From IMG/VR virus record IMGVR_UViG_3300042401_001867, positions 1-60,482 of that record: DNA of 60,482 bases; one strand, 5' to 3'. The notes below the pieces were generated by a model that did not search any database, had not been told where the DNA came from, and saw only the letters and a list, made by a program, of their open reading frames with translations. The DNA is from a virus (lineage: Duplodnaviria; Caudoviricetes). Shown piece after piece: positions 1-23,473 of this stretch. The first letter of the stretch is position 1, and each line of letters opens with the position of its first letter. A program made the translations under genes and the position numbers.

Positions 1-142
1 AGAACTTGCCGTGATTACGCCCGAAGCAACGGCGAGGTTTTTGGCGTTTGGGGTGGGGAGACAGAGATAGAGCGATACAACGCTGGATTTTTAGAGTTTG
101 TACCCCACCACCTAAGTCGGAACAGTGCTATCGTCAAGAGGG

Positions 143-367
143 ATGAACACTTATAACGATTTTTTGGCTACGATATCTATCTACTACGAAAAGCAAGCGC
201 TAGCAGGTGGGGATTTGAGATACGGGCAGATGTATATGAACCACCTATGGGAAGTAAAGCCCCGCATAGCAGAGAAACTAAATGGTTCGTTGCTTGACCC
301 GTTCCATAGGGATAACTGTCCACCTAAAGTCCACGAGTTCGTGGAAGCATTGTGGTTCAGCGAATAG
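143..367 (+). CDS. hypothetical protein
   Basis: ORF track 125..367; ATG at 143 lies just downstream of a -10-like TATCGT. Confidence 0.65.
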   Translation: MNTYNDFLATISIYYEKQALAGGDLRYGQMYMNHLWEVKPRIAEKLNGSLLDPFHRDNCPPKVHEFVEALWFSE

Positions 368-506
368 GACAGCAAGACGAGCGACGAGGTTTATGAATAA
401 CCCGTGAAGGTTTTTGCTCAGCCTCTTTTTTCTTTTTTTTGTCCTCGTCAGCCATACACCAAGAATACACCTTGTGTTTCGAGATGAGCCCCGCTACTAT
501 TTGGGT

Positions 507-704
507 ATGAGTTTGCCCCCACTATTTACCTGTTTTGTTTGTAACCACTCAATTGACCCGAACGCCAACAACTCTTTACGATTGGCAACTGTATGGCTGA
601 AGGGCGCTGGCAAGACGGTTCACGCTATTGAGAACGAGATGTATCGCTATCGCCATAACTTTTGTAACCTTGACCCGAACTTTGAGCAAGACAGTCTTTT
701 CTAG
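507..704 (+). CDS. small Cys/His-containing hypothetical protein (CxxC ... HxxC)
   Basis: ATG at 507 is 6 nt after TACTAT (leaderless pattern); CFVC and HNFC motifs. Confidence 0.55.
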   Translation: MSLPPLFTCFVCNHSIDPNANNSLRLATVWLKGAGKTVHAIENEMYRYRHNFCNLDPNFEQDSLF

Positions 705-904
705 CCGAGACGCATTGCGCCAATCGCCGAGTTTGTCTCGCCAAGTGTTTTGCCTGCGACATTGCCAGTAACGCCAACGCGAGTGTCAAGGTTTTTGAGT
801 ATCACCTGAACTTCGTCAAGTTTCTTGTTCATCTCTACGAGTGAGTTCATAACGGACTTCATTGCTTGCTCTATTGAGGTGTCTGTTGATGTGTCTAGTT
901 CCAT
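701..904 (-). CDS. small coiled-coil hypothetical protein
   Basis: ATG 904 is 7 nt after TAGGAT on the minus strand; heptad-like LVEMNKKLDEVQVILKNLD. Confidence 0.55.
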   Translation of the reverse strand: MELDTSTDTSIEQAMKSVMNSLVEMNKKLDEVQVILKNLDTRVGVTGNVAGKTLGETNSAIGAMRLG

Positions 905-934
905 ACGGCTAATCCTAGCAAGTATGATGACGGA

Positions 935-2857
935 GTGCGCCTCTACCTTGACCACGATTTGTTAGCACTTGACTTTCCGTATGACCCAGCACAGGTTGCT
1001 GAAGTCAAAGGTATAGCCGGGGCTAAGTGGGACAAGGTGGACAAGCTGTGGAAGGCACCCATAGCCTCAATTGGAGATGTGCGTGATTTTGCTGTCAAGC
1101 ACGGTTTTGACATATCAGATGAAGTAATGAAGTTCACGGCACCAACTAGAGCGTCACGAAAAGGTGTTTATGTGAAAGGTGACTGGGTATTCATACAGTT
1201 TCCTTACGACAAAGTTGTACTCAAGGTAGTCAAGCAGATAGCAGGCGTCACTTGGGATAACAAAGAGATGGCTTGGAGAGCGCCACTAGCGTCAGCAAGC
1301 GAAGCAATTGCGTGGGCTAAGTCGTTTGATGTTTTTGTATCGCCTGAAGTACACGGTGTTTCCACCTCAATAAACAAGAAGTTAGATGAACTAAAGGAAG
1401 CGTCACGCTCAACAGACGCAGATATCGAAGTCCCGCTACTACAAGGAACACTATTGCCGTACCAAAGGGCAGGCGTGGAGTACGCCTCAAAGGCTAAGAG
1501 ATGTTTTATCGCAGACGAAATGGGACTTGGCAAGACGATACAAGCAATAGCAACGCTGGAGTATTCATCTAAGAGTTCAGACACCTACCCAGTAGTCATT
1601 GTTTGCCCACCAACACTCGTACTCAACTGGCAGGCAGAGTGGAATAGGTGGTTGCCTCACAGAAAGGTGGAAGTGGTAACAAGTCGCAAGTCTTTCCCGG
1701 AGCCCCGGACGTACGACGTGGTTGTGGTTGGTTACTCAAATATCCAACACTGGGAAAAAGAACTAACTAGTCATAACTCATACATTTTTGACGAAAGCCA
1801 TTACGCAAAGACACCCACTGCCCAACGAACCAAGTCAGCGATAAAGATGGCTAAGTCGGCAGATAAAGATGGAATTGTGTTATGTCTCACTGGGACACCC
1901 GTAACCAATAGACCAGCAGAGTACGCCAGCCAACTTGACATCATTGGAAAACTGAAAGAGTTTGGTGGGTTGTGGGGATTTTATAGACGATATTGTTCAG
2001 CGTTCCAAGACAAGTTTGGTCAGTGGAATATCAGTGGTCACTCTCATCTTGACGAACTCAACGATAGGTTGCGTGGTACTTGCTACATAAGACGAACCAA
2101 GTCGCAGGTACTTACTGAACTGCCACCCGTGATACATAGTCCACTTCTTGTTGAGGGTACTGATGTGGGGCTCAAGGAGTATCGCAAGGCAGAACAAGAC
2201 ATAATCAAGTACATAACGGACAGAGCCAAAGAGATAGCGATAGAACTCGGAGAAAGCCCTCACTCGGCAGCCGTTGTGGCGAAAATAAGAGCAGAAAGTA
2301 ACGAACACCTCGTGAAGTTATCCGTTTTGAGGAGACTGTCAGCCAAAGCAAAGATGCCAATGGTTGAGGAGTGGGTACAGTCCCGCATTGATGACGGCAA
2401 GAAGGTTGTAATCGCCGCTCACCACAGAGACATTGTTGATGACTTGGCAAAGAAGTTTGGCAACCTGCGTATTCAGGGCGGTATGTCGGTTGAGGAAATA
2501 GAAGCACAGAAGGCGAGGTTCCAAGACGAACCCGTAGAGACTGCGCCAGTCATTGTGTTGTCTATTCAGGCAGCCAAGACTGGACACACGCTCACATCAG
2601 CACAAGACATTTTGTTCGTGGAACTACCGTGGACACCATCGGACTTAGACCAAACATTTAGTCGTCTACACAGAATTGGGCAAAAGGGAAGCGTCACGGC
2701 TACTTATATGCTCACTGACAACACGATAGACCAAGAGATTTACGCACTTATTGAGAAAAAGCGCAAGGTAGTGAACGCTGCGACAGAAGGTGGAGAGTTT
2801 GCTGCGAGTGGTGGTGCTACGCAATTGATACTTGACTTGCTATCGCGCGCACGGTGA
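935..2857 (+). CDS. SNF2-family (HARP/SMARCAL1-like) DNA helicase/annealing translocase
   Basis: Two N-terminal HARP-like repeats (FPYD...W...W.AP), LLPYQ, ADEMGLGKT, DESH, LTGTP, SRLHRIGQ motifs. Confidence 0.9.
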   Translation: MRLYLDHDLLALDFPYDPAQVAEVKGIAGAKWDKVDKLWKAPIASIGDVRDFAVKHGFDISDEVMKFTAPTRASRKGVYVKGDWVFIQFPYDKVVLKVVKQIAGVTWDNKEMAWRAPLASASEAIAWAKSFDVFVSPEVHGVSTSINKKLDELKEASRSTDADIEVPLLQGTLLPYQRAGVEYASKAKRCFIADEMGLGKTIQAIATLEYSSKSSDTYPVVIVCPPTLVLNWQAEWNRWLPHRKVEVVTSRKSFPEPRTYDVVVVGYSNIQHWEKELTSHNSYIFDESHYAKTPTAQRTKSAIKMAKSADKDGIVLCLTGTPVTNRPAEYASQLDIIGKLKEFGGLWGFYRRYCSAFQDKFGQWNISGHSHLDELNDRLRGTCYIRRTKSQVLTELPPVIHSPLLVEGTDVGLKEYRKAEQDIIKYITDRAKEIAIELGESPHSAAVVAKIRAESNEHLVKLSVLRRLSAKAKMPMVEEWVQSRIDDGKKVVIAAHHRDIVDDLAKKFGNLRIQGGMSVEEIEAQKARFQDEPVETAPVIVLSIQAAKTGHTLTSAQDILFVELPWTPSDLDQTFSRLHRIGQKGSVTATYMLTDNTIDQEIYALIEKKRKVVNAATEGGEFAASGGATQLILDLLSRAR

Positions 2858-2881
2858 GCCCCGCCGTCTCGTCACGCTGGA

Positions 2882-2907
2882 AATCTGAAGCACCCCCGTA
2901 TTAGGAT
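2882..2907 (+). promoter_or_regulatory. putative early promoter AATCTGAAGCACC-N7-TAGGAT
   Basis: Same upstream box and 7-nt spacing to a TAnnnT hexamer recur at 6227 (-) and 6837 (-), each ahead of a gene start. Confidence 0.6.
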
Positions 2908-2950
2908 TGCGTTGCCGCAAGGCACACAAGCCAACTGAAAGGGGCACAAA

Positions 2951-3151
2951 ATGGAAGAATGGGAAGAGGCGGGTTTCGCTTCGGAAGAGGCGTATGTGAA
3001 AGACGCAAACGCTATGTACGAAGCCGAGCAAGAAGCGGAGTTTTGTATGAACTTCGTCAACCGTGGGGGTATCGCATCTGAATGGCGACAGGCTTATCAT
3101 CAGTCGCAGATGACCGAAGAAGAGCTGGTCGCCTATCTCCACGGGGAATAA
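2951..3151 (+). CDS. acidic hypothetical protein
   Basis: 66-aa ORF with strong RBS (GAAAGGGG). Confidence 0.65.
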   Translation: MEEWEEAGFASEEAYVKDANAMYEAEQEAEFCMNFVNRGGIASEWRQAYHQSQMTEEELVAYLHGE

Positions 3152-3186
3152 GGCAAACGAAGCCCAACTGAAAGGGGGTGAACAAA

Positions 3187-3408
3187 ATGAAAAGGGAGAT
3201 TATTTGGCGCTTGACCGAAACTCAAAAGGCGCTCATTATGAGAGCAGTTCTACATTGCCCAACCCAAACGGGAATGGGCGCTGAGGAACTGGAGGAGTAT
3301 TGGGCTCACTCAAGCGCACTTGAGTTGGAACTTGAGCAACTCGGTCACGGTGGCGAGGGGTTGTGGTGGTATTTGTACCACAACACCAAGCGCCGAAAGA
3401 AGCGCTAG
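3187..3408 (+). CDS. hypothetical protein
   Basis: ORF with the same CAACTGAAAGGGG...ACAAAATG leader as the preceding gene. Confidence 0.6.
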   Translation: MKREIIWRLTETQKALIMRAVLHCPTQTGMGAEELEEYWAHSSALELELEQLGHGGEGLWWYLYHNTKRRKKR

Positions 3409-3463
3409 TGGACAGAGGCAGGGGCACACAGCCCTTGTCTCTCGTCTGCGTGTGTGGCGGGGC

Positions 3464-3886
3464 TTATTCGACCTTGCTGTCGGGAACTATGCCCATCAAC
3501 TCATCAGCAATTAGTTTTGCGTATTTTCTGCGCAGTTTCCATATTTTTTGGTTCATTTCAGCCATTGCGTCAGTGGTGCGTGCCTTCTTTATTGCGTCAG
3601 TATCAAAAACGCCGTACTTCTTAAACAAAATATCGTCAAGGTCGTTGTTCTCAATGATTATGTCGCTAATCCAATGACCCCTCTTGTCAATGCTCATCAG
3701 TAGTTCACAAAGACCCTCAAAGCCAAACTCGTTGTAGACACGGTTGGTTACTAAATCGCAGAAATGGGCACGGTACATCATCTCTGCCTCGGCTGTGTTG
3801 GTCATAAACTCACTCAGCCATACGGCGAGTTCTTCTCGTGACGGAATATCACCATCGTCTCCGTCAAACTCAAAGTCTTCTTCCAT
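3464..3886 (-). CDS. acidic hypothetical protein
   Basis: 140-aa ORF, GGAAGG upstream. Confidence 0.7.
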   Translation of the reverse strand: MEEDFEFDGDDGDIPSREELAVWLSEFMTNTAEAEMMYRAHFCDLVTNRVYNEFGFEGLCELLMSIDKRGHWISDIIIENNDLDDILFKKYGVFDTDAIKKARTTDAMAEMNQKIWKLRRKYAKLIADELMGIVPDSKVE

Positions 3887-3942
3887 TAGCCTGCCTTCCG
3901 TTGTACCGGGGCTCTAGTAATCAATGATACTTGTGATGACTG

Positions 3943-4968
3943 TCAAGCCAAAGACAGAATAACTTCTTGCGCCAACACCTTCTTTTGTGTGACCCAGGAA
4001 TTGCTATTCATTGAGGCAAGCGCACGCTCATCTGCCTTGCCTTCACGATAATGGTCAAGGTATTCGGCAATAGCGTTGTACGCACTCCACCCGTTATACC
4101 CGTAGCCACCTGCGTTTCTTTCGTTGTCGTACACTCCACGAACAAGCGCTACTACTCCGTCACGGTTTTTCTTTTGCCTATCAGTGCCGTTCGTTTCGTT
4201 GGGGAACACCTTGTCAAGTATCGTTGCGAGTTGCGCACTTCGTGGTGGAACGTTGATGGTGAGCAACTTATTGGCTACAAACTGGAACGACTTCGCCCAC
4301 TCCGTTGATATTTCTAGAACTTTCTGTGCTTCCTCAATGGCGTTGTCAGCGTTACGAGTGTGTCGTGCCGTGAACACACGACGGGCAGACGCTTGACCTG
4401 CGATTACGGTGTTCTTACATACTGCTCTGATTGAGGTGTTAGCAAAGGTGATAGCCGTCTTGCCATCGTGACCATTACGAACTAGTAGGTAACGGTCTAT
4501 CTTGTCGTTGATACCCGTGGGGTCAATGATGAGTTGCCCCAAGTCAAGAGAACTAAAGAACTCTCTGCCTTCGTCAAGTACGCCACAAGTGTCTACTACT
4601 GCGTCCCCCTTCGAAGCCCCGACTATTGCGAGGGCGTAATCCAAGCACTCACGGTTTTGCTGTACGACATAGCGAGTACCTACTGTGGCTAGTCCGTCAA
4701 ATGTGCCGTCAGGATTTACTCTCACGGTTGCTCGGCTGTCCTCAATAATCACTGGCGTGTTGTCAGGGTTTCTAATGAGGTTGCCCTCTGCGTCTACGAC
4801 TGCGACCTTCGTTGTGACCACATCAAAGTCAGCCTGCGCTGCTTGGAGCATTGCCTCTGCCGTCTGTAGTCCCTTCATAGGAACACCTAGACGATGCCAC
4901 GGGACTTCACGGTCAGCATAAGCCATTCTCGCTATGCCCTTGTTGTCTACTTCTAGTGAGTGTGCCAT
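3943..4968 (-). CDS. DUF932-family phage/plasmid protein
   Basis: MAHSLE start, PWHRLG, YVVQQN, RYLLVRNGHDG, TSIRAVCKNT, RHT, WSAYNAIAEYLDH motifs typical of DUF932. Confidence 0.85.
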   Translation of the reverse strand: MAHSLEVDNKGIARMAYADREVPWHRLGVPMKGLQTAEAMLQAAQADFDVVTTKVAVVDAEGNLIRNPDNTPVIIEDSRATVRVNPDGTFDGLATVGTRYVVQQNRECLDYALAIVGASKGDAVVDTCGVLDEGREFFSSLDLGQLIIDPTGINDKIDRYLLVRNGHDGKTAITFANTSIRAVCKNTVIAGQASARRVFTARHTRNADNAIEEAQKVLEISTEWAKSFQFVANKLLTINVPPRSAQLATILDKVFPNETNGTDRQKKNRDGVVALVRGVYDNERNAGGYGYNGWSAYNAIAEYLDHYREGKADERALASMNSNSWVTQKKVLAQEVILSLA

Positions 4969-5067
4969 AACGCCTTGTCTCTCGGTTGCTTCGTAGTTAG
5001 ATTTATCTGAAAGCAAGCATACACTCTGCCCTCTTACTACTGGAGTAAGTGACCTACACCTCTTATT

Positions 5068-5340
5068 TCACCTGTCAAACACTATTTCCTGTGACACTTG
5101 GATTACTTGACCGTACTTCTTTACTAGGTCATCAGTCGCTTCTAGTGTGTTGCCGTGACACCAACGGACTGCGAGACCACTAAGAGTGTCACCTTCCTGA
5201 ACGATTACTCGGTCAATGTCACAAAAATAACTATCGTCACCTCGCACTGCGACAAACATACAGAACAAAACTACCAAGAAAAATAATGGTAGTAGTATCA
5301 GGTCACGCTTCTCGGTTTGCTTCGTGTTGTATTTGCTCAT
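5068..5340 (-). CDS. membrane-anchored LysM-like protein
   Basis: Hydrophobic segment followed by VIVQEGDTLSGLA...IQVSQEI. Confidence 0.6.
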   Translation of the reverse strand: MSKYNTKQTEKRDLILLPLFFLVVLFCMFVAVRGDDSYFCDIDRVIVQEGDTLSGLAVRWCHGNTLEATDDLVKKYGQVIQVSQEIVFDR

Positions 5341-5530
5341 TTGATTTGCCCTTTCGGTAGGTACTAATTACACTAGGGTAGTTTGACCCCTATGTCAAGG
5401 ATTTCCGATTGGGCATACTGGGTATGACTACTACCCGTAGCACTACCCGTAGTCACTTGCTGGCTTCATATGCGTTGGTAGGTGGCATGTCAGGTGGGCT
5501 ATGACACTCCGTACCGGGGCTTCGAGATTG

Positions 5531-5905
5531 CTATTGGCTAGATGGTGCTATCCACTCACCACCACTGGCTAACACTGTCCCTCCACTAGGGGCGATACTC
5601 CAAGCGTAGTTACAACAAGGCTTCTCGCTGTACGGACTAGGGTGTGCGCCTCGCTCTATTGACTTGGCTAGTAGTGGGAAGGTGTCTAGCAACTTCACGA
5701 TACAAGCGTGGCACATACTCCACGACTTCAGTAATTCATCAGACTTCATAATTGCTTCTATGTTGTCTGTAAAGCCATTGTAATAACCAAAGGTTTCGTA
5801 AGGCAACCACCAACCATCGTCAATGGCAGTTGGGGAACTGATACTGGCTGGATACATCTCGCCACAAGCGTCGCACATCACTGCGTCGGGTGTTGGATTA
5901 TTCAT
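5531..5905 (-). CDS. Cys-rich hypothetical protein
   Basis: CDAC, CHAC and CC motifs; ATGA-type overlap with the upstream gene. Confidence 0.65.
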   Translation of the reverse strand: MNNPTPDAVMCDACGEMYPASISSPTAIDDGWWLPYETFGYYNGFTDNIEAIMKSDELLKSWSMCHACIVKLLDTFPLLAKSIERGAHPSPYSEKPCCNYAWSIAPSGGTVLASGGEWIAPSSQ

Positions 5906-6195
5906 AAGGCGTACTCTCCTCGCTTCCTTCGGTAATGGGATACAAACTCATCACTATCATAGTCACAAGGTGACCACACTATGTCGGCTTCACTGAAGGT
6001 ATCGTCAGGGCGTAAGCGAACTATCACATAGTCAAAGGCATCATCAGCGTTGCGTGTGAGGTACTTCATACAATCTACGAGGGTAGAGCGATACTCAAAG
6101 TAATCAGGTAGGTCATAGCGACACATACTCCAAGCGTCACCATACGAGGGGCAATCAACTACTGCGTACCTGCGTCTGTCTTTCTCAACGGTCAT
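5902..6195 (-). CDS. hypothetical protein
   Basis: 97-aa ORF with a leaderless start after TAGGCT. Confidence 0.65.
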   Translation of the reverse strand: MTVEKDRRRYAVVDCPSYGDAWSMCRYDLPDYFEYRSTLVDCMKYLTRNADDAFDYVIVRLRPDDTFSEADIVWSPCDYDSDEFVSHYRRKRGEYAL

Positions 6196-6201
6196 AGGGT
6201 G

Positions 6202-6227
6202 AGCCTACGGTATGGGTGCTTCAGATT
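6202..6227 (-). promoter_or_regulatory. putative early promoter AATCTGAAGCACC-N7-TAGGCT
   Basis: 14-bp exact reverse-complement match to 2882-2895; ATG follows 6 nt after the -10. Confidence 0.6.
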
Positions 6228-6268
6228 ACTAGTAGTCATAACCCGTAGTGCTACCCGTGCGTCTTGCG

Positions 6269-6355
6269 TCAGTCATGGTCTTTCAGTTTCATCGCACAAT
6301 AGACGAGGGCGATACCTGCGAGGCACATCAGGTCAAGCAATGTCGCACCACTCAT
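6269..6355 (-). CDS. 28-aa hydrophobic peptide (MSGATLLDLMCLAGIALVYCAMKLKDHD)
   Basis: Translated by eye; ATGA coupling to the stop of 6352..6540. Confidence 0.45.
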   Translation of the reverse strand: MSGATLLDLMCLAGIALVYCAMKLKDHD

Positions 6356-6540
6356 TGCTCACAACCTACTGCGTCATCACTGTCATCAGTGAGACTGAAC
6401 TTGGGCATTACGAACAGCGTGTTACCTATGCTGTATGCGTTACGACTTGCGTTATACATTGCGTCAGGGAATAGACGAACCAAGTCAATCGCTGTCAGTG
6501 GCGTGTCGCGTAGGTGAACTACGTTTCGTATTCGTGCCAT
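6352..6540 (-). CDS. hypothetical protein
   Basis: 62-aa ORF within a run of minus-strand genes. Confidence 0.55.
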   Translation of the reverse strand: MARIRNVVHLRDTPLTAIDLVRLFPDAMYNASRNAYSIGNTLFVMPKFSLTDDSDDAVGCEQ

Positions 6541-6557
6541 TGTCGTTGTCGTTCGTT

Positions 6558-6782
6558 TTACTTCGTGCTAGCGATTGCGTTTGCGTAATAGACGTCATCG
6601 CACCACTCTGCCAACCTCACTAGGTCAGCAACCAACGAACCTTCGTAGTTGAGTAACTCAGCCAACCCATTAGGCAGTGTTTGTGAATTGCTATCGCCAC
6701 CTCGCTTCGTGTTGTATATCGCCGTGATGAGTTCACTAGCAACTCTCGCGACATCACTGAAACTATTTGCGTTGTGTACCAT
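6558..6782 (-). CDS. hypothetical protein
   Basis: 74-aa ORF with AAGGGGA RBS. Confidence 0.6.
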   Translation of the reverse strand: MVHNANSFSDVARVASELITAIYNTKRGGDSNSQTLPNGLAELLNYEGSLVADLVRLAEWCDDVYYANAIASTK

Positions 6783-6811
6783 ATTGTCCCCTTGTCTAGT
6801 AGTTATCGTAA

Positions 6812-6837
6812 GCGTACAGCATAGGTGTATCAGATTT
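6812..6837 (-). promoter_or_regulatory. putative early promoter AATCTGATACACC-N7-TACGCT
   Basis: Third copy of the AATCTGAnnCACC box with the same spacing to the -10. Confidence 0.55.
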
Positions 6838-6939
6838 CTAATGCGTTTTCAGAGGGGTCGACGGGGCTCTTTCCGAACACATACCCCACCGGTGGGCACT
6901 AACGAGCCAAAATATGGAGTTGCCGGACTTTAAATAGAT

Positions 6940-7575
6940 TTATCTAAAGCGGCTCTTCGAAGTGGTCTTCTTCTTCGCCTTGTTGCGCTCATGCTCCTCA
7001 GGGTCGTCTATACGCGTCACAAGCCCTCCTAGGCTCGTCCAGTCGGCTTTCTCTCCCAGGTGGGCCACTGCCGTCTTAATCTCCCAGCGCATGCCTGCGT
7101 CGAATGCACAGTCAAGCAGCAGTATGTGAAGCTTGTTTAGGTCGTATATGAGGGTAGGGCTTGAGTTTCCATATTTGAAGTGTTGTCTTATCGCTGCAGA
7201 TAGCTCTGCGTAGTCGCCTTCGACATGGATGAGGTTTTGTGGTTCTGCTACATCTATTGCAAGGTATCCATATGGCGCATCCATCTTCTCAATCAGCGTT
7301 CCCATGAGTCCCCTCATTTTTTGCGTCCCAAAACCGGCCTGCTCCAACTGTCCAAGGAGCAACACGATGAAGCATCCCTCATAGGTGAAGCTTCTGTCAT
7401 ATCCTGATACGCCTGTATGTATGTAGGAAGCAGGTATGAGACCTTCTTTTATCCAGAAGTCGAAAGTCTTGTACGGAGTCTCGGTGTAAAAGGAGAGCTC
7501 TTGCAGTGTGAGTGTAAGAGTTTGTTTCTTTTGTAGATGGAGAGCTTTGATTCTCTCTGTGCTCATTAGTGCCAT
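6940..7575 (-). CDS. MerR-type HTH transcriptional regulator
   Basis: LTLQELSFYTETPYKTFDFWIKEGLIPAS...GYDRSFT...QLEQAGF matches the MerR HTH pattern. Confidence 0.6.
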   Translation of the reverse strand: MALMSTERIKALHLQKKQTLTLTLQELSFYTETPYKTFDFWIKEGLIPASYIHTGVSGYDRSFTYEGCFIVLLLGQLEQAGFGTQKMRGLMGTLIEKMDAPYGYLAIDVAEPQNLIHVEGDYAELSAAIRQHFKYGNSSPTLIYDLNKLHILLLDCAFDAGMRWEIKTAVAHLGEKADWTSLGGLVTRIDDPEEHERNKAKKKTTSKSRFR

Positions 7576-7773
7576 TGTGTTGTTCCTCTAGGTGTAAATA
7601 TAACAGATGACTTGGAAAACCAGGATAAATTTAACTAGAAGTTGGCGCGCCGTTTTTCTCAGTTTGATTATTGTGGGGTGGCTATAAAATATATAACCGC
7701 TTGCTATTGCTGATTAAATTTATCCAATAGAGGGCCAAAATAAAAAAATCGCGCGGGAAAGCCGTCACCTAGA

Positions 7774-8148
7774 TTACAGGGTTGCGTCGTTCTGGTTTAA
7801 TTTAGCTGACACTCTTGATTGTCTTATGTACTGTGACTTGGCTCCGTTCGCAGCAAGGTGGTCGTATTCTTCCTTTTTGCGAGCTCGTCCCATCAACTGT
7901 AAAACATGTTGACCATAGAGGGTTATTCTGTATTGTTCGTGCCCCTTTTTCTCTTCTCGTTCTAGACAGTCAGTCTTTACTAGGTGTTTGAAAGACTCCT
8001 CGACATGGCCGACATGGTCTCTTCTGTTGAGTTGGAAACCTCGGTAGTCGGCGCGAGTAAACCAGCCCTTTTTTGTCTTTGCGTAACACATAACGACGTA
8101 CGCCTGGCTGCCTTGTTTGATTGGTTTTCTATTTGGGAATTGATTCAT
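7774..8148 (-). CDS. hypothetical protein, possible winged helix
   Basis: HLVKTDCLE...YRITLYG resembles a wHTH wing. Confidence 0.55.
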   Translation of the reverse strand: MNQFPNRKPIKQGSQAYVVMCYAKTKKGWFTRADYRGFQLNRRDHVGHVEESFKHLVKTDCLEREEKKGHEQYRITLYGQHVLQLMGRARKKEEYDHLAANGAKSQYIRQSRVSAKLNQNDATL

Positions 8149-8188
8149 GGGGGTGAACCATATCTACCGTTTTAGAAAATCACAAGTT

Positions 8189-8602
8189 TTATTCTGTGTC
8201 TTTTGTCGTTTTGTTTGCGTCCGAATACTTGGCATAATGAAGCGTCGATGCGGCATGCTCTGGATTCAGCGTCTTGAGCCACCCACCGATTGACTTCATT
8301 AGGACCCCAGGGCCACCAGTGGCGCTACACGTCTTGAATGAAATACCTTCATATTTGGAGATTATATTGTTGATTTTCTCCAGAGTATCTTTGTCGTCCA
8401 TATTCGATGGTTTTATGTAGTAGCGAAGGCCGCCAAACTTTTCTTTAACTTGGTAAATCTGATAGTTCGGGTCCACTCCGGTCAGTTCTTTGTCGCAATC
8501 TATGACCAGCTGATACCAGCCCTCATCAACATCTATTGATTTCCAGTATTCAGGAACTATTTTTTTCTTGAGTTCCTCTACCTGTAGTTGTATCTCATTC
8601 AT
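8189..8602 (-). CDS. conserved phage hypothetical protein (QVKEKFGGLRYY type)
   Basis: GW...QVKEKFGGLRYY...C...G.PG motif, recalled as common in phages. Confidence 0.75.
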   Translation of the reverse strand: MNEIQLQVEELKKKIVPEYWKSIDVDEGWYQLVIDCDKELTGVDPNYQIYQVKEKFGGLRYYIKPSNMDDKDTLEKINNIISKYEGISFKTCSATGGPGVLMKSIGGWLKTLNPEHAASTLHYAKYSDANKTTKDTE

Positions 8603-8753
8603 TTGGATACTTCCCGATTAATTTATCCAACTCATCGTTTGTTAGGAACTTTTGAATCACCTCAACAGGCGAAGTGTTTTTGTGCATTATGCACCGCTCT
8701 GATTCTCCGAACATATCCAAAACCGTCTTGATTGTTACGTTGAGGTTTTTCAT
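8595..8753 (-). CDS. 52-aa hypothetical protein
   Basis: Translated by eye (MKNLNVTIKTVLDMF...); fills the gap between flanking genes and overlaps the next start. Confidence 0.5.
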   Translation of the reverse strand: MKNLNVTIKTVLDMFGESERCIMHKNTSPVEVIQKFLTNDELDKLIGKYPNE

Positions 8754-8762
8754 GCCGTCATC

Positions 8763-8996
8763 CTACTCAGCGCAATGCTTTTCGTAGGCCTTGTGCGCAA
8801 TTCTGTTTACTTCATCGCTTAGGCGGTCAGCGACACTGCCTGGATTATCCCAACCAAGTTCATCCATAACCATCTCAAACAGGTCGTAAACGGCGCGTTC
8901 TAGAAGAACTACCTGCTTTTCTGGCGACCTTGGGATGGGGCCCAGTTTGTGCCCGCCCGTATCCCATTCGCTATATGTGGTGTATGTGTATTCCAT
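8763..8996 (-). CDS. hypothetical protein
   Basis: 77-aa ORF with AAGGAG RBS. Confidence 0.7.
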   Translation of the reverse strand: MEYTYTTYSEWDTGGHKLGPIPRSPEKQVVLLERAVYDLFEMVMDELGWDNPGSVADRLSDEVNRIAHKAYEKHCAE

Positions 8997-9021
8997 TGTT
9001 TCTCCTTTGTTTTTATTTGAG

Positions 9022-9094
<73 letters not shown>

Positions 9095-9100
9095 CATTAA

Positions 9101-9454
9101 CTAACGACCACTCCTTCTTCTCATCTGATGCTCGAGCATTCTTTCACTTTTCTCGTATTCTTTGTTCTTGCGTTTTTTAGCTGCATCTTTCAACTCTTTT
9201 TGTCGTGTATTTCTCCAGCCACGCTCTTCACTATGAAATATAACGTCTTGATGGTCAGCACAAAATTCAGCATTGTGCTCCTGGATGCTTGAGACATAAT
9301 TTTTACATTTCCTCAAATGTTTTTTCTGACTAATTGAGTAGAACTTGCACTTTTCCTCACCTGTATTTATTGGACGCAATGAACCAACAACAGAGCCACC
9401 ATTCTTTGCGCCATGTCTTTCACGACGAACCTTATCCCAGTCCATTTTTTTCAT
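9101..9454 (-). CDS. basic Cys/His hypothetical protein
   Basis: 117-aa ORF with a C...C...CxxH pattern. Confidence 0.6.
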   Translation of the reverse strand: MKKMDWDKVRRERHGAKNGGSVVGSLRPINTGEEKCKFYSISQKKHLRKCKNYVSSIQEHNAEFCADHQDVIFHSEERGWRNTRQKELKDAAKKRKNKEYEKSERMLEHQMRRRSGR

Positions 9455-9465
9455 GAGTTAACCTT

Positions 9466-9636
9466 CTACCAGGACTCGCCATCTTCGTCGAGTGAATAAC
9501 GGCTGCGGACTTCAAACCGCAGAGGCTTTGTGTTTTCGTAGGCTTCTTGAACGACTGCCATCCCATACAGCAGGACACCGGTCATGACGATAAAAAATAT
9601 GACTGAACCAAAGCCGAATAGCGCTGATTGTGACAT
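9466..9636 (-). CDS. 56-aa membrane protein
   Basis: Translated by eye (MSQSALFGFGSVIFFIVMTGVLLYG...); GGGAG RBS. Confidence 0.55.
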   Translation of the reverse strand: MSQSALFGFGSVIFFIVMTGVLLYGMAVVQEAYENTKPLRFEVRSRYSLDEDGESW

Positions 9637-9657
9637 GCCTAGTGCTCCCTTTTCTTT

Positions 9658-10173
9658 TTAGTTAACGGTCCCATTCAGGACATTCTTCGCACAAACAGGA
9701 CCAATACCTGCATCAATGCTCTTCTCGTCATCTAGGGAGCGACCGCAAATACAGCACAAACCCGTTTTACGACCAATCTCTATCATCTCGTCAAGCGACA
9801 AAGGACGCATATCCCCATCTTCTATCATCCTCGCAATACGCTCATGAGCAAACCCATTATCAGCAACAGTGGCCCATGAAGCCAGGTTCAAACCACGACG
9901 ACGAATTGAACGCTTGCCTTTAATTTTGAATACCTTATAAATTTGAATGAAATACTCGTCTTTATCAATATAGAGACCATCATCAATAGTCGTCACCCAC
10001 TTTTTGGTTTGCTCTTGACTCAACCCACCAACCAACTTGGAACCAGCAATCAATTGGTTCTTCGTCAAAAACCCAGCCTTATCATAGAAGGCAACAAGAC
10101 TCTGGGCAAAGGTGCTCTGGTTGAGTGGGCGAAGGGCCGAAACGATAACTTCTACATCCGGACTTGAAGGCAT
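9658..10173 (-). CDS. DUF6011-like zinc-finger protein
   Basis: C-terminal CCICGRSLDDEKSIDAGIGPVCA; the longer ORF-track start overlaps a tRNA-like gene. Confidence 0.75.
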   Translation of the reverse strand: MPSSPDVEVIVSALRPLNQSTFAQSLVAFYDKAGFLTKNQLIAGSKLVGGLSQEQTKKWVTTIDDGLYIDKDEYFIQIYKVFKIKGKRSIRRRGLNLASWATVADNGFAHERIARMIEDGDMRPLSLDEMIEIGRKTGLCCICGRSLDDEKSIDAGIGPVCAKNVLNGTVN

Positions 10174-10227
10174 AACAAAACAATAGCAACGGTAGTAAGG
10201 GAAGACAACCCTCCATGAATCCAATAG

Positions 10228-10302
10228 TGCCCCTGGTTGGAATTGAACCAACGTGGACCGCTACGGTTTCTACACCTTATAAGAGTGAGCCGATACAGGG
10301 GC
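10228..10302 (-). tRNA. D-armless tRNA-like RNA with TAT anticodon and long variable arm
   Basis: GCCCCTG/CAGGGGC acceptor + A, GTTGG-TTCAATT-CCAAC T arm, CACT-CTTATAA-GGTG anticodon arm, ACCG-TAG-CGGT variable hairpin; only 7 nt where the D arm should be. Confidence 0.65.
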
Positions 10303-10392
10303 AAGCATTATTTTGCCAACCTTTGTATTCGACCAGTTAGAAACATTAGTAACGCAAGCCTATCCTCATCGGGTGTTTTTGCAACTTTAATT

Positions 10393-10578
10393 TTATTTTG
10401 CATCTTCTTCCGGTGTTTGCTTGTCTTCGTTTTCTTCCACTTCTTCATATGTCTCGTAAACCTCAATAAGGGCATCATTGCCGTTTGTCATACCTGGCTT
10501 CTCGACGTTAATGAACTTTCTTACTAATCTACGCACTTTACGGTCTTCTTCTTTTTGTGTATTCAGTAATTGCGGCAA
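10393..10578 (-). CDS. hypothetical protein
   Basis: 61-aa ORF; start uncertain. Confidence 0.45.
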   Translation of the reverse strand: MPQLLNTQKEEDRKVRRLVRKFINVEKPGMTNGNDALIEVYETYEEVEENEDKQTPEEDAK

Positions 10579-10810
10579 AACATTTCTCGGTGTATCCGTC
10601 CGCTGTCTTGTCCATCCCTACTACATCGAAGAGCATGTCTGCAAGGTCGCGTTCTTTTTGGTAATCGCCACGCCAGTTATCTCTGTCGAGACGTATTAAG
10701 ACATTGTTATCTCGTAGTGCTTTTATTTCGTTTATAACAACAATAGAGAATTGACTAGGGCTCTTTTTTAGTTCTTCAATTATGTCAATCTGGTCTTCTT
10801 CTGAACTCAT
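10538..10810 (-). CDS. hypothetical protein
   Basis: 90-aa ORF with AGGA RBS. Confidence 0.65.
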   Translation of the reverse strand: MSSEEDQIDIIEELKKSPSQFSIVVINEIKALRDNNVLIRLDRDNWRGDYQKERDLADMLFDVVGMDKTADGYTEKCFAAITEYTKRRRP

Positions 10811-10818
10811 GCTTTTCC

Positions 10819-11271
10819 TTATGCGTCGTACTTCGGATTAATCATCATGTCCATAACATCTTCTGGCATGAGTAGAAAACCCTTCGCTGGGTTATCTGCT
10901 CCACCAAGATTTATCTTATTATTGCCGTTGAATCTTTCCGGGAATGCTCTGAGGTAACGCTTCAAACGAGATACAGACACAACAATAAACGCACCCTCGG
11001 GTGAAAATATGTAGACCCACCACTTAGCGGTAGTTATGTTTATACCGCTCTTGTTCCAAACCTGTACGCCGTTGATGTCCCTGTATCCACGTGGGTTCTG
11101 GTCGGTCTCAACGACCATTCTCCCATTTCTGTACCTATCACTCTTTACTTCAAACGAGCCATCGGAAAGGTCATCAAGGAAGCCGGAAACAAGAGACTCA
11201 CCACCTTGCCCGTAAGCAAGGTCTTTCTTAAAATCAAATTTTCGCGATGGTATGTCGAACTCAGCGGCCAT
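10819..11271 (-). CDS. PD-(D/E)xK-like phage protein
   Basis: DLAYGQGGE...FEVKSD...MVVE...SGI..T.AKWWVY pattern. Confidence 0.6.
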   Translation of the reverse strand: MAAEFDIPSRKFDFKKDLAYGQGGESLVSGFLDDLSDGSFEVKSDRYRNGRMVVETDQNPRGYRDINGVQVWNKSGINITTAKWWVYIFSPEGAFIVVSVSRLKRYLRAFPERFNGNNKINLGGADNPAKGFLLMPEDVMDMMINPKYDA

Positions 11272-11309
11272 GCATTAATCATGCCACCAACGAGCCGAAT
11301 TGGCAACTT

Positions 11310-12023
11310 CTAGTTGCCGTAAACTCGCCAGTTACCAAGTTTGCCCTTGGAATTATCCATGATGTACTTAGCCACCCGAACGTTGCAAACTGGGTCCTTA
11401 AGACCTGCCATACGCCCATCGACAGAATCTTTTCCACATACGAGCTTTGTTACCGAGAACCAACTTGAGTTGATTTGTAGTAAGCCCGTGTCGTATGACT
11501 TGTTCTTGTTTAGATGGTATGTCATATTGCCATTCGCATCCCATTTGGCGTTCTGTGCCTGGGGATTACAGCCACTCTCGCGCCAAGCGATATAAGAGAA
11601 CACTTCCACTGGCTCAAGCCCATATTCTTGAAATAAAGGAATCCATTGAGGGCAGCGTTTTGAAAGGTCGCTAGGAATGTTGTATACCGAGCTTATTGGG
11701 GGCGTTGGAACATTGTTGGTAGGTAGGTTTAGCTTCTGAAGCTTCTCTACGTGTTCGCGAAGGGTTATTGACCCATAGACACCATCAACCCGAACGGTCC
11801 CAATCGTTGTCTGAAGCTTTTTAACTCGTTGGCTTTTCTCGCCAAAAGAGTAAACATCTAGCAAAACGGCCTTAGTTTTGGTCCCCTCCACTCTGTCTGG
11901 CATGACAACCACGACAGCTTGCTGGGAGGGCAGGGAGGACATCTCCGCCTTCGTTGTTCCTGGGAGGGAAATCCCAAGGGCTCCAAAAAGTATAGAAATA
12001 GACCATCCTGTGATTTGCTTCAA
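11310..12023 (-). CDS. secreted lytic transglycosylase (SLT-like) with a peptidoglycan-binding-like segment
   Basis: Signal-like N terminus; VKKLQ...VDGVYGSIT; IAWRESGCNPQAQN, DTGLLQINSSW, DPVCNVRVA. Confidence 0.8.
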   Translation of the reverse strand: MKQITGWSISILFGALGISLPGTTKAEMSSLPSQQAVVVVMPDRVEGTKTKAVLLDVYSFGEKSQRVKKLQTTIGTVRVDGVYGSITLREHVEKLQKLNLPTNNVPTPPISSVYNIPSDLSKRCPQWIPLFQEYGLEPVEVFSYIAWRESGCNPQAQNAKWDANGNMTYHLNKNKSYDTGLLQINSSWFSVTKLVCGKDSVDGRMAGLKDPVCNVRVAKYIMDNSKGKLGNWRVYGN

Positions 12024-16936: not shown

Positions 16937-17322
16937 TGAGTCTCCTCGGAATATTTCTTCATCGCTGCATCCCTGAGTCTAAAATTTCCTTTGTAGGCAA
17001 ACCCATTAGCGTTTCTACGACCTATTCCTGGCAGGAATATTCTTGCCTCACGCGAAAGGAGTATGTCTCTTTCGCTTCTGATTAATGCTCTTTGAGATTC
17101 TGTCTTGCCGCCCCAAATTCCGAGAGGCTCATGGCGAAGAGAGTATTCCAGACAATGCTCTTCAGCAGGACATGAGTTACAAAGTTCAATTGCATCCTTC
17201 ATGTCTTGTTTGTATTTCTCCCACTGCTCTCGCGGCAATCCTTTTTCTATTAGTGGAAACCACTTCGAAACATCTTGACCCTTGCAACTTCCGTCTGCTG
17301 GTGGCGCATCGTAATTCGGCAA
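16933..17322 (-). CDS. whiB: WhiB-family Fe-S transcription factor
   Basis: Four-Cys pattern C...CNSC.....C plus GIWGG turn. Confidence 0.88.
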   Translation of the reverse strand: MPNYDAPPADGSCKGQDVSKWFPLIEKGLPREQWEKYKQDMKDAIELCNSCPAEEHCLEYSLRHEPLGIWGGKTESQRALIRSERDILLSREARIFLPGIGRRNANGFAYKGNFRLRDAAMKKYSEETQ

Positions 17323-19222: not shown

Positions 19223-21148
19223 ATGACGTCGCTTGACCAAACATTCGTGGATTCGTATTCCCTAAAACAGGCTCCCTGGGGCTTTAACGGTATGGGGGAG
19301 ATAGTTTTTCTTCGCACCTACAGCCGTAAAAAAGATAACGGAAACAACGAAACTTGGCCAGAAACTCTTCAGCGTGTAATCAACGGCGCGATGGAAGTTG
19401 GTGTTGAGTACACCAAGGAAGAGGCAGAGGCACTTTTCGACCATTGTTTTAACCTTCGTTGCTCTTTTTCGGGTCGTTCTCTTTGGCAACTCGGAACACC
19501 ACTTGTTCAGAAGCTAAATGCAACTTCATTAAACAATTGTTACTTCACCAACATCGAAAAGATTGAAGACTTCGAGTTGTTGTTCGAATACCTAATGCTC
19601 GGTGGTGGTGTTGGTTTCTCTGTAGAGCGCTCCAAGATTCACGATTTGCCAAAGGTGAAACTAGGCGTAACGATTACGCACGAACGTAGTAACGATGCAG
19701 ACATTATTGTCCCCGACTCACGTCAGGGTTGGAAGCGACTTCTTCATGCAGTATTGAAGTCGTACTTTGATACCGGAAAGTCTTTTTCGTACTCAACGGT
19801 TCTTATTCGCGAGTATGGTGCACCGTTGAAAACATTCGGTGGTACCGCATCTGGCCCTGGGGCTCTCATCGATGGAATCGCAGACATTGCGAAAGTAATG
19901 CAGAATCGCGAGGGCAAGAAGCTCCGTTCGATAGACGTGCTTGACATTTGCAACATTATTGGTCGTATTGTCGTCTCTGGTTCATCGCGACGTTCGGCAC
20001 AGATTGCGATGGGTGACCCAGATGACGTTCTTTTCCTTCGTGCCAAAAATTGGGCATCTGGGAACATCCCAGCATGGAGAGCAAACTCAAACAACTCCAT
20101 TTACGCCGACCACTACGACGAAATCATGACCGAACTCTGGAAAGGCTACGACGGAACAGGTGAACCTTATGGCTTGTTGAATCGTCGACTTGCTCGCAAG
20201 TTCGGAAGGCTCGGTGAGGCTAAGGCCGATAACTCAATTGAAGGCTTCAACCCATGCGCGGAAATAGCACTAGCCGACGGAGAGTCGTGCAACTTGGCAA
20301 CCATATTCTTGCCAAACGTTGAGTCGCTTGAGCAATTTAAAGAAATCTCCCGTTTGCTTTATAAGACACAAAAACAAATAACTCGCATGGCTTATCCGTA
20401 CGAGAAGACAACGAACATCGTCAGCAAGAACGCACGACTAGGACAATCAGTAACTGGAATCCTCCAGTGTTCAGAAGAGCAGGTTTCTTGGCTGTCACCT
20501 GCATATGAGTACTTGCAGGAATTTGACAAGCATTACTCCGCTGAGCGTGGATGGCCGGAATCGGTTCGCTTAACCACGGTCCAGCCTTCTGGAACGCTTT
20601 CGCTCCTTCCTGGCGTGACTCCTGGAATCCACCCTGCATTTGCTCCTTTCTACGTCAGACGGGTTCGCTTTGGCTCTTCAGACCCCCTTGTGGACGCTTG
20701 TCGCAAGCGTGGATACAAAATCCAGTGGGACATAGGCATTGACGGCAGAGAGGACCACACGCGTTATGTGGTGGACTTCCCATGCATGTCACCGGAGGGC
20801 TCAATTCTTGCTTCAGCAATGACTGCGGTAGAGCAGCTTGAGTGGGTCAAGAAGATGCAGACCGAGTGGGCAGATAATGCTGTTTCCGTGACTGTCTATT
20901 ACCGAAAAGAGGAACTCGGAGAAATTCAGGAGTGGCTCTCAAAGAACTACGACAAGAGCGTTAAGTCGGTTTCATTCTTGTTGCATGTTGACCATAACTT
21001 CTCCTTGCCTCCATACGAGGAAATCACTAAAGAGGAGTACAACAAGATGCTCGCCAAGGTTGATTTTTCAACTCCGTTGCAAGACGTTGCTTTTATGGGA
21101 GATTTGGACCTCGACAATTGCGCAACGGGTGCCTGTCCGATAAAGTAG
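19223..21148 (+). CDS. nrdJ: class II adenosylcobalamin-dependent ribonucleotide reductase (monomeric type)
   Basis: RTYSR, LNNC, GGGVG, RRSA, NPCAE active site, TTVQPSGT, C-terminal CATGACPIK. Confidence 0.93.
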   Translation: MTSLDQTFVDSYSLKQAPWGFNGMGEIVFLRTYSRKKDNGNNETWPETLQRVINGAMEVGVEYTKEEAEALFDHCFNLRCSFSGRSLWQLGTPLVQKLNATSLNNCYFTNIEKIEDFELLFEYLMLGGGVGFSVERSKIHDLPKVKLGVTITHERSNDADIIVPDSRQGWKRLLHAVLKSYFDTGKSFSYSTVLIREYGAPLKTFGGTASGPGALIDGIADIAKVMQNREGKKLRSIDVLDICNIIGRIVVSGSSRRSAQIAMGDPDDVLFLRAKNWASGNIPAWRANSNNSIYADHYDEIMTELWKGYDGTGEPYGLLNRRLARKFGRLGEAKADNSIEGFNPCAEIALADGESCNLATIFLPNVESLEQFKEISRLLYKTQKQITRMAYPYEKTTNIVSKNARLGQSVTGILQCSEEQVSWLSPAYEYLQEFDKHYSAERGWPESVRLTTVQPSGTLSLLPGVTPGIHPAFAPFYVRRVRFGSSDPLVDACRKRGYKIQWDIGIDGREDHTRYVVDFPCMSPEGSILASAMTAVEQLEWVKKMQTEWADNAVSVTVYYRKEELGEIQEWLSKNYDKSVKSVSFLLHVDHNFSLPPYEEITKEEYNKMLAKVDFSTPLQDVAFMGDLDLDNCATGACPIK

Positions 21149-21152
21149 AGGC

Positions 21153-21647
21153 ATGGCAGGAAGAAAACCAATTCCAGAAGAAGAACGCTTTTGGGAAAAG
21201 GTAGATAAATCTGGACGTAATCCAGATAAACCAGATTGTTGGGAATGGACTGCGAACACAGTAAAAACATATGGCATGTTTTCGTGCAAACGAAATGGAA
21301 TAAGCGGAAACATTCAGACGCATAAATATATTTGGGAAAAACTAAACGGTCCTGTTCCGGAAGGGCTTGAAGTTTGTCACCTATGCAACAACCCACCATG
21401 CGTACGTCCAGACCATTTAGAGGTTGGTACTCGTTCTCACAACCAGCGTTATTCTGTATTGCATGGAAACCATAAGGAAAGCAGAAAAACCCACTGCAAA
21501 CACGGCCATCTTTACGACGAAGGAAATACCTATTGGAAAATCAGCGAACACACCGGCTTTAAAACGCGTGATTGCAAGACATGTCATAAAAGGTGGAATC
21601 AAGAGCGCAGTGAGCGCAGGCGGAAGCAAAAGAAAGAAGAGAAATGA
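21153..21647 (+). CDS. HNH homing endonuclease
   Basis: RFWEKVDK...CWEW, VCHLCNNPPCVRPDHL.VGT...N, THCKHGH...CKTC. Confidence 0.88.
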   Translation: MAGRKPIPEEERFWEKVDKSGRNPDKPDCWEWTANTVKTYGMFSCKRNGISGNIQTHKYIWEKLNGPVPEGLEVCHLCNNPPCVRPDHLEVGTRSHNQRYSVLHGNHKESRKTHCKHGHLYDEGNTYWKISEHTGFKTRDCKTCHKRWNQERSERRRKQKKEEK

Positions 21648-22177: not shown

Positions 22178-22248
22178 CCCCATTAGCTTAATGGATAAAG
22201 TGGATGCCTTCTAAGCATCTGATGGGAGTTCGATTCTCTCATGGGGCG
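22177..22248 (+). tRNA. tRNA-Arg(TCT)
   Basis: GCCCCAT/ATGGGGC acceptor, GATGC-CTTCTAA-GCATC anticodon arm, GTTCGATTC. Confidence 0.88.
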
Positions 22249-22250
22249 CT

Positions 22251-22460: not shown

Positions 22461-22479
22461 ACAACACGGAGAAGGGGCT

Positions 22480-23151: not shown

Positions 23152-23270
23152 GCGTCATTTAAATTTATCGCAATTGTAAGTCCTGGTAATAAGACTTACT
23201 ATTGCTATGATGCATTATGAGGGAGCATCCATCTAGGTGGTGCTGAAACTGACTCTGTCTACCCTCACTC

Positions 23271-23343: not shown

Positions 23344-23365
23344 CAACTAGTATTGGCTAAACCAC

Positions 23366-23455: not shown

Positions 23456-23473
23456 TGTATGTTATTGTTTTGG

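Follow-up and report, generated by a model that had tools for sequence, protein, structure and literature searches.

The DNA analysed here, referred to throughout as the window, is the IMG/VR virus record IMGVR_UViG_3300042401_001867 (60,482 nucleotides, judged about 40% complete), and the subject of this work is a sharply bounded zone at its left end in which a large set of four- and five-base words is almost entirely missing. The window probably belongs to an uncultured freshwater lake phage of about 160 kb with an actinobacterial host. Among the 23 sequencing runs listed, all used as Logan assembled contigs, 20 carry the window stretch; each of these 20 is labelled as a lake water metagenome and contains 65-99% of the words sampled from window positions 2001-12000. 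The probable host assignment draws on WhiB-like genes, present at two to three per genome in all five related records, and from the actinophage relatives of the large terminase, whose closest cultured counterparts are those of Gordonia and Methanobacterium phages at about 40-43% identity. A Megablast search for close cultured relatives returned no match for window 1-7100 and, for 20000-40000, a single 54-base match (23561-23614) within a tRNA-Thr gene. The comparison covers the whole sequence of four complete relatives, G1 (172.5 kb), G2 (160.4 kb), G3 (158.7 kb) and G4 (156.3 kb), and their large terminases are 82-97% identical to that of the window.

The locus comprises the following elements, including several small open reading frames (ORFs).

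1-6939: right-hand 6.9 kb of the motif-purged zone, truncated by the left end of the contig, as delimited by word counts, expectations, relatives and selection tests
1-156, plus strand: 3' part of a WhiB-like gene, truncated at the contig end (PF02467 match at 1-75, 25 bits, above the cut-off)
935-2857, plus strand: SNF2-family helicase of 640 amino acids (PF00176, 2.9e-28; Helicase_C, 5.4e-10; phrog_62, 2.2e-103)
3464-3886, minus strand: small ORF of 140 amino acids, without a family in profile searches
3943-5016, minus strand: DUF932 protein (PF06067, 1.1e-38; phrog_1221, 2.8e-55)
5068-6782, minus strand: four small ORFs (5068-5340, 5531-5905, 5902-6195 and 6558-6782), without a family in profile searches
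6783-6939: intergenic boundary region of 157 bp, its layout conserved in G1 and G2
6940-7575, minus strand: ORF of 211 amino acids, the last gene outside the zone, characterised by predicted structure only
7063-60482: bulk genome, with normal palindrome content and no GATC

The SNF2 helicase gene sits in a small opposite-strand island within the zone, and the four ORFs between 5068 and 6782 read away from the zone boundary. The DUF932 protein is conserved over about 347 amino acids, its TTG start being uncertain, and the truncated WhiB-like gene has a full homologue at G1 117730-117894.

Word depletion in the window

GGCC, TGCA and GANTC do not occur at all in positions 1-6939. They first appear at 7063, 7105 and 7306, respectively, and reach totals of 105, 228 and 263 over the whole window, while maximal-order Markov expectations for 1-7062 are 22.1 for GGCC and 29.7 for TGCA. 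Six further palindromes are depleted 4-10-fold in 1-6939. Their counts in 1-7062 are 2 for AGCT (26.9 expected from the same model; 162 in the whole window), 2 for TTAA (160 in the window), 3 for CATG (22.9 expected; 191), 7 for TCGA (26.4 expected; 223), 5 for ACGT (39.9 expected; 126) and 6 for CGCG (25.5 expected; 123). The effect is selective, with CTAG (28 seen, 28.2 expected), GTAC (32 and 35.5) and GCGC (23 and 26.8) undepleted in the same interval. When all 256 tetranucleotides are compared between 1-7062 and the remaining window, the six most depleted are palindromes. The depletion also extends to non-palindromic pentanucleotides: TTCAA/TTGAA has no site in the zone (29.7 expected) against 225 in the remaining window, CCAGA/TCTGG none against 201, AAATT/AATTT none against 160, and GGATG/CATCC one against 129.

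The change in word content is abrupt. In 1-kb windows, the observed/expected ratio for 11 palindromes lies between 0.10 and 0.36 in all seven windows of 1-7000 and between 0.55 and 1.07 in all 53 windows of 7001-60000, the step falling at 6860-7063, where ORF 6940-7575 has its 3' end. An earlier, sequence-only reading of this DNA had placed the change near 6.9-7.0 kb, at the end of what it called a MerR-like gene, and had proposed a Markov-corrected windowed scan as a check; the scan reported here separates all seven zone windows from the 53 later ones. The individual counts of that reading (first GGCC at 7063, first TGCA at 7105, and six TCGA and six CCGG in 1-6900) are exact on recount, as is the absence of GANTC, and CATG, AGCT and TTAA are indeed as rare as it had claimed. 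The analysis thus bears out the depletion and finds it more pronounced than first described. One correction concerns GATC, which is missing from all 60,482 bases (about 194 expected), so that its absence is not specific to the zone.

The MerR-like label for ORF 6940-7575 is plausible at the level of the fold. The ORF has no sequence match in Pfam, PHROG or the PDB, and in a model built from five sequences (mean predicted local distance difference test score 68.6) its N-terminal ~80 residues form a MerR-type winged helix. The first 14 Foldseek matches listed for it are all MerR-family chains, with weak scores (E 2e-3 to 0.1 over ~80 columns). The label of the sequence-only reading thus receives weak support from structure comparison and none from sequence families.

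Extent, upkeep and word sets of the zone in related genomes

The zone measures 30-32 kb in the four complete relatives, or about 19% of the genome, and at least one word class shows a step at each of its two ends. Judged from these genomes, the window holds only the final 6.9 kb, and the length of ~7 kb given in the sequence-only reading has a real right edge and a left limit set by the end of the contig. The zones, or the stretches of them rich in the promoters described below, lie as follows.

G1 98816-126039 (L105-L107): promoter-rich stretch of the zone, from a motif scan
G2 78860-107222 (L095-L097): promoter-rich stretch of the zone, from a motif scan
G3 42586-72273 (L112-L113): zone, from word counts
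G4 99391-131342 (L122-L124): zone, from word counts

Both edges are visible in counts per 2-kb bin, oriented from the edge beside ORF 6940-7575 (the near, or right, edge). In G1, AGCT, GGCC, TTAA, ACGT, CGCG and TCGA together number 29-41 per bin before the edge, 1-23 over the following 15 bins, and then 54. TTCAA and CCAGA in G3 go from 10-17 to 0-4 over 15 bins and then to 16, and AATT, TATA and ATAT in G4 from 15-34 to 0-6 over 16 bins and then to 16. The near edge was also scored in 10 loci carrying ORF 6940-7575: the drop directly after this gene is clear in eight, weaker in one (L009), and one locus (L010) is too short to tell. Relatives therefore share the boundary, as the sequence-only reading had suggested checking, and all four complete genomes have it. 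The far (left) edge lies in all four just past homologous genes for a 510-amino-acid protein (phrog_33218) and an AAA_5 ATPase, and the SNF2 and DUF932 genes are found 2-7 kb from the near edge in the relatives. Between the edges, the zone consists of about 65-80 small genes (median ORF length 97-126 amino acids against 158 in a bulk sample), 49 of the 66 zone ORFs of G1 lying on one strand. The guanine-plus-cytosine (GC) content of the zone exceeds that of the bulk, at 48.4 against 45.8% in the window and 56.9 against 47.7% in G4.

Beyond the far edge, all four genomes carry a block of 2-4 kb (92000-96200 in G1, L105) with about twice the density of six palindromes (AGCT, GGCC, TTAA, ACGT, CGCG and TCGA; 54-74 per 2 kb against about 30). 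In G1 this block includes a gene of the DUF1599 'nucleotide modification associated' family.

The depletion was compared with what the encoded proteins allow by permuting synonymous codons among 11 zone ORFs, with protein sequences and zone codon usage kept (200 runs). For each of 13 words the ORFs contain 0-4 sites, against 10-26 per word in the shuffles, and the observed count was reached in none of the 200 runs. CTAG, GTAC and GCGC are at expectation in the same shuffles. In ten adjacent bulk ORFs it is mainly GATC that deviates, with ACGT, TTAA and TCGA mildly deficient. DNA outside the zone ORFs is likewise purged, with 5.75 sites per kb compared with 2.5 inside them and a bulk density of 24.2; both orientations of the non-palindromic words are missing, and gene blocks on the plus and minus strands are purged to an equal degree. 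These features indicate selection on DNA, not on messages.

The comparison with G1 shows that the purge is actively maintained. Over 5711 aligned zone positions the two genomes differ by 1042 substitutions, yet both remain nearly site-free for a set of nine words (eight sites in the window, nine in G1). Random placement of the same substitutions yields 107.5 +/- 10.8 sites, with a minimum of 76 in 200 runs, and in a bulk control the 364 and 399 sites observed compare with 361 simulated. The window and G1 share 75-86% nucleotide identity over the zone and 72-82% over the bulk; zone and bulk have diverged equally, so the block has co-diverged with the genome and was not recently imported, which excludes the case of a recently acquired block that the sequence-only reading had named as refuting its proposal. 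The purge is maintained by ongoing selection at the DNA level.

The words removed differ among lineages and among sub-blocks of the zone. In the window, G1 and G2, over ~10 kb beside the near edge, the avoided set comprises TTAA, CATG, TGCA, GGCC, AGCT, CGCG, ACGT, TCGA, GANTC, TTCAA and CCAGA, of which CATG, TGCA and GANTC are avoided in this lineage only. The core of the G3 zone keeps CATG and TGCA and avoids TATA, ATAT, TTAA, ACGT, TCGA, GGCC, AGCT, CGCG and CCGC/GCGG, the last with 3 sites against 58 expected from the bulk density. The G4 core avoids AATT, TTAA, TATA, ATAT, ACGT, TCGA and AGCT, and its interval 103360-120046 (L123-L124) has no AAAA/TTTT over 16.7 kb compared with 2168 copies genome-wide; AATT, TATA and ATAT are missing from this interval as well. 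TATA, ATAT, AATT and AAAA/TTTT are not known to be restriction sites. Which edge anchors the site-free runs varies: the near one in G1, the far one in G3 and both in G4. A simple entry gradient, in which G1 was read as one sharp edge followed by graded recovery, was rejected on the grounds of this anchoring at the other edge and of the two sharp edges in G3 and G4. The zone resembles a mosaic in which each cassette has been purged for the enzymes its carriers encountered, and an arms race against changing host enzymes would predict such differences in word sets among lineages. A wider search with DUF932 found 106 related loci, of which 80 were kept; around DUF932, the eight-palindrome set of the window falls below 6 sites per kb in 23 of these and below 12 in 35, and GATC is absent in 60.

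GATC follows a pattern of its own. It is missing from the whole of G1-G4, where 328-434 copies are expected in the bulk alone, and is the sole strongly avoided word in the bulk of these genomes. Profile searches of the five records found neither PF02976 (MutH/Sau3AI) nor PF04556 (DpnII) in any, and no encoded Dam-type methylase.

Putative promoters of the zone and other genes of the window

The zone coincides with a predicted promoter class. In G1 the motif TTTGTAAATCTGATATC-n3-T-n4-TAnnnT, that is TTGTAA, an 18-nt spacer and TAnnnT (also written TTGTAAATCTGATATC...TAnnnT), occurs in 27 exact copies. A matrix built from these sites has 31 matches in the 172.5-kb genome, 30 of them within the zone (98.8-126.0 kb), 28 following the main gene array in orientation and two located at opposite-strand islands. 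The G2 variant, TTTGGAAATTTGGTATC, has all of its 30 matches inside the zone, oriented with the genes, and all three copies of the window variant, AATCTGAWRCACC, are in the zone, a number that none of 100 shuffles yields. The copies in the window are as follows.

2882-2894, plus strand: promoter-like element AATCTGAAGCACC, 57 nt upstream of ORF 2951-3151
6215-6227, minus strand: promoter-like element upstream of ORF 5902-6195
6824-6836 (start 6841), minus strand: promoter-like element, first in the zone, 59 nt upstream of the ATG at 6782

The array of promoters is framed by the same edges as the purge. Its first copy (window 6841-6800) is set back from the near edge by ~100 bp into the zone, and its last precedes the AAA_5 and 510-amino-acid genes that end at the far edge. 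The spacer is strongly conserved, which suggests a putative regulator binding site. A generic sigma-70 scan of window 1-12000 gave 10 sites against 14.9 expected. In G3 and G4 other words mark the zone, (A/G)TAGATAAGT in the former and GTAGATAA(G/C)T in the latter. For words of the (A/G)TAGATAAGT type, 62 of 66 copies in G3 and 89 of 94 in G4 are in the zone, on both strands and also inside ORFs, with 4-5 copies elsewhere in those genomes and 0-1 of the combined pattern in G1, G2 and the window. By its motif content, the zone of G1 and G2 forms a distinct putative transcription class with ~30 copies of one sigma-70-like promoter motif. The position of such promoters before arrays of small genes without annotated function indicates that these genes are most likely early and dependent on the host polymerase. 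The T7-type RNA polymerase family (PF00940) has no match in the five records, but the control genomes are likewise without a match.

The bulk of the window encodes a primase-helicase, a ribonucleotide reductase, a major head protein, a portal, a large terminase and five tRNAs. Two further features are relevant here.

17086-17295, minus strand: WhiB-like gene, from a profile match
43970-53920, minus strand: polyvalent protein of 3316 amino acids, from Pfam domain matches

The polyvalent protein begins with an N-terminal prohead protease domain (S78) and contains ArdC-N and zincin metallopeptidase domains. A sigma-70 region 4 match exceeds the Pfam cut-off overall, yet no single stretch does so alone, and a WYL match falls below the cut-off. 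From this domain content, the protein is probably packaged in the head and injected. Its neighbour, an ORF of 2916 amino acids at 33708-42458, has no Pfam match.

Possible explanations and known systems

Starting from the observed purge, its edges, its upkeep by selection and its coincidence with a promoter class, we infer that the zone would be an early compartment, that host restriction would be the agent of selection and, at a further remove, that the DNA may enter in stages. On balance we favour the view that the compartment is kept site-free while host restriction is active, with a staged, T5-like entry as the likeliest cause. The host polymerase would read the compartment from its ~30 sigma-70-like promoters, so that this DNA would have to be intact and expressed while the restriction enzymes of the host still act, and continuing selection would remove from it words of four to five base pairs of the kind cut by Type II enzymes. 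Early products would then disarm restriction, and the remaining ~130 kb would enter the cytoplasm, or become accessible, only afterwards, as in the two-step transfer of T5. The density of ~24 sites per kb in the bulk points the same way, since DNA of this kind could not survive a cognate enzyme and must be absent or shielded at that time. The sequence-only reading had proposed that the block enters the cell first or is otherwise unprotected, the rest being shielded; ongoing selection on DNA, edges shared among relatives and a promoter class of its own lend weight to an unprotected block.

Several points weigh against this explanation. The assembled contigs of four runs continue across the zone boundary and map no physical terminus there; their zone/bulk depth ratios of about 1.0 (X1), 1.1 (X4), 1.3 (X2) and 1.5 (X3) are compatible with or without a terminal repeat. 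The complete relatives assemble as circles with overlaps of 56-127 bp at non-homologous places, so that their 'terminal repeats' are best read as assembly overlaps, and circular assemblies would fit a permuted, headful-packaged genome that has no fixed first segment. No repeat-rich non-coding stop region is present at either edge (the intergenic DNA measures 157 bp in the window and ~280 bp at the left edge of G1); no notable repeats were found in window 1-9000 or at the G1 left edge, and the predicted RNA fold of 6783-6939 is no better than that of shuffles (z 0.02). T5 A1, A2 and dmp have no homologue in a tblastn search with six pre-early proteins against the window and G1-G4 (best E 0.97), a BLAST-only search that leaves room for remote homology. 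There is no consistent gradient from one end of the zone, and 17 of the 66 zone ORFs of G1 lie on the opposite strand. The complete avoidance of GATC in the bulk implies that the shield is not general. Restriction alone may not explain every avoided word, above all AAAA/TTTT, and other word-reading factors may contribute.

A bolder version, which we put forward tentatively and consider possible without being probable, is that gated two-step delivery arose independently of T5 in ~160-kb freshwater actinophages and that the ~30 promoters define a 30-kb pre-early compartment. This compartment would be alone in the cell until its products have disarmed restriction, and its promoters could perhaps be recognised through the sigma-region-4-like stretch of the packaged polyvalent protein. 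If this were true, the lists of forbidden words would directly reveal which restriction specificities an uncultured host population possesses, and purged blocks could locate early regions and injection polarity in metagenomic phages.

The alternative that survives best, although we regard it as unlikely, is that the whole genome enters at once and that the bulk is shielded by base modification or by the packaged ArdC-like protein of 3316 amino acids, the early part being left naked for the polymerase and hence obliged to avoid sites. The prohead protease start, ArdC-N and zincin domains make packaging and injection of this protein plausible, and a 'nucleotide modification associated' DUF1599 protein is encoded just past the left edge of G1. 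The circular assemblies and the match of the zone to a promoter class, not to any mapped terminus, would also suit this scenario. It is opposed by the profile searches for methyltransferases (N6/N4, C5 and D12), thymidylate-synthase-like and TGT-like families (PF00303, PF01555, PF00145, PF02086 and PF01702), none of which has a match in the five records, a result that argues against a modification shield of the bulk. In addition, the genome-wide loss of GATC implies that the bulk is not generally immune, and no mechanism is known by which a single 30-kb stretch would escape modification or coating when the rest of a replicated genome receives it.

It is quite improbable that the words are read instead by early nucleases of the phage directed at host DNA, or by other host factors such as silencers that bind AT tracts, so that DNA present and active at that stage would have to lack them. 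The non-classical words (AAAA/TTTT in G4, TATA and ATAT in G3 and G4) and the raised GC content of the zone would be in keeping with such factors, and the pre-early genes of T5 degrade host DNA while sparing their own in a manner left unexplained in the consulted part of PMC10644984. On the other hand, 4-bp palindromes, which are characteristic of Type II enzymes, make up most of the avoided words, and a phage would need a dozen specificities to account for them. Profile scans of 10 zone ORFs of the window revealed no nuclease family, and the MutH/Sau3AI and DpnII families are missing from all five records.

Selection on early messenger RNAs (mRNAs) to avoid words cleaved by a host endoribonuclease or toxin would account for the coincidence of the zone with transcription units and for the density of remaining sites, which is roughly twofold higher outside ORFs than within them. 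We give it very little credence, because TTCAA, CCAGA and AAATT are absent in both orientations, the opposite-strand gene islands are equally purged, non-ORF DNA is still 4-fold depleted, and a preference for palindromes has no rationale in RNA. Recent import from a biased donor, an assembly chimera or a chance of composition, for which the unusual composition and the position at a contig end might speak, is refuted by the like divergence of zone and bulk from G1, the same position and edges in four complete genomes, the GATC absence common to both parts, the contigs of four runs that span the edge and, as regards chance, the codon and substitution shuffles.

The principle behind an early compartment kept free of restriction sites is known from T5, BF23 and Murciavirus; the present case differs in its scale, the breadth of the word set, conserved edges with lineage-specific word lists, and the coincidence with a promoter regulon of its own. 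In T5 and BF23, Type I and Type II systems act only through sites in the first-step-transfer (FST) DNA, according to the consulted part of PMC10644984. As described there for T5, BF23 and Tequintavirus, FST DNA is a sub-genomic segment of small host-takeover genes, read by the host polymerase, which has to lack restriction sites although the remainder of the genome can carry them unharmed; the zone resembles it in these respects and in its divergently oriented units. It differs in length, which at 30-32 kb is threefold greater and takes up ~19% of the genome instead of the T5 share of about 8%, and in having neither A1, A2 and dmp homologues nor a 1-kb repeat-rich injection-stop region; nor do the contigs mark it as terminal or repeated. 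T5 first-step DNA shows no general loss of 4-bp palindromes and is at expectation for all 16 (for example TGCA 35 against 35.1 expected, GATC 24 against 29.4), whereas the zone is nearly without 8-12 of the 16 four-base palindromes and several 5-mers. The T5 analogy drawn in the sequence-only reading therefore holds for the signature of a site-free segment and is looser as regards the words involved.

The T7-like Murciavirus offers a second parallel. In the available portion of PMC12455610, a restriction motif has consequences only when located within the leading early region, which is also the most variable part of the genome, and selection is again sub-genomic. There the motif is a single one of Type I, and the phage is a podovirus of ~40 kb whose entry is known to be driven by transcription; the zone lacks a dozen words of Type II character, and staged entry is a proposal for its ~160-kb phage. 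The leading regions of conjugative plasmids are also first exposed, rich in anti-defence functions and GC-rich, as the zone is GC-richer than the bulk. Among 1751 plasmids, however, as far as the consulted part of PMC13478746 goes, leading regions have no systematic depletion of restriction targets and none of 4-bp palindromes, unlike the near-total depletion of the zone, and the main text of PMC11541004, a paper on plasmid leading regions, does not mention DUF932, SNF2 or ArdC. Phages are further described, in the part of PMC6286503 consulted, as avoiding Type II-like palindromes genome-wide through synonymous choices; the present avoidance is instead confined to a sharply bounded fifth of the genome, and is genome-wide for GATC alone.

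The pattern indicates, by sequence analysis alone, that restriction can filter one bounded fifth of a phage genome and purge it of a dozen words of 4-5 bp, an effect far stronger than any in T5 first-step DNA or in plasmid leading regions. Because the edges stay in place while the forbidden words change from lineage to lineage, purged zones could flag DNA that is early or first exposed in uncultured phages and give an indirect record of the restriction specificities of their hosts. They also raise the question of what protects the other 130 kb, and why this protection fails for GATC.

Two observations concern the assemblies themselves. Several long related contigs terminate, as the window does, inside the zone and within 1-8 kb downstream of DUF932. 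High variability of the zone among strains, which would disrupt assembly, is the probable cause. Low-depth contigs in X3 (depth 4) and X4 (depth 9.1) link window position 13567 to 4920 through 30 other letters, a join that may represent a rearranged relative.

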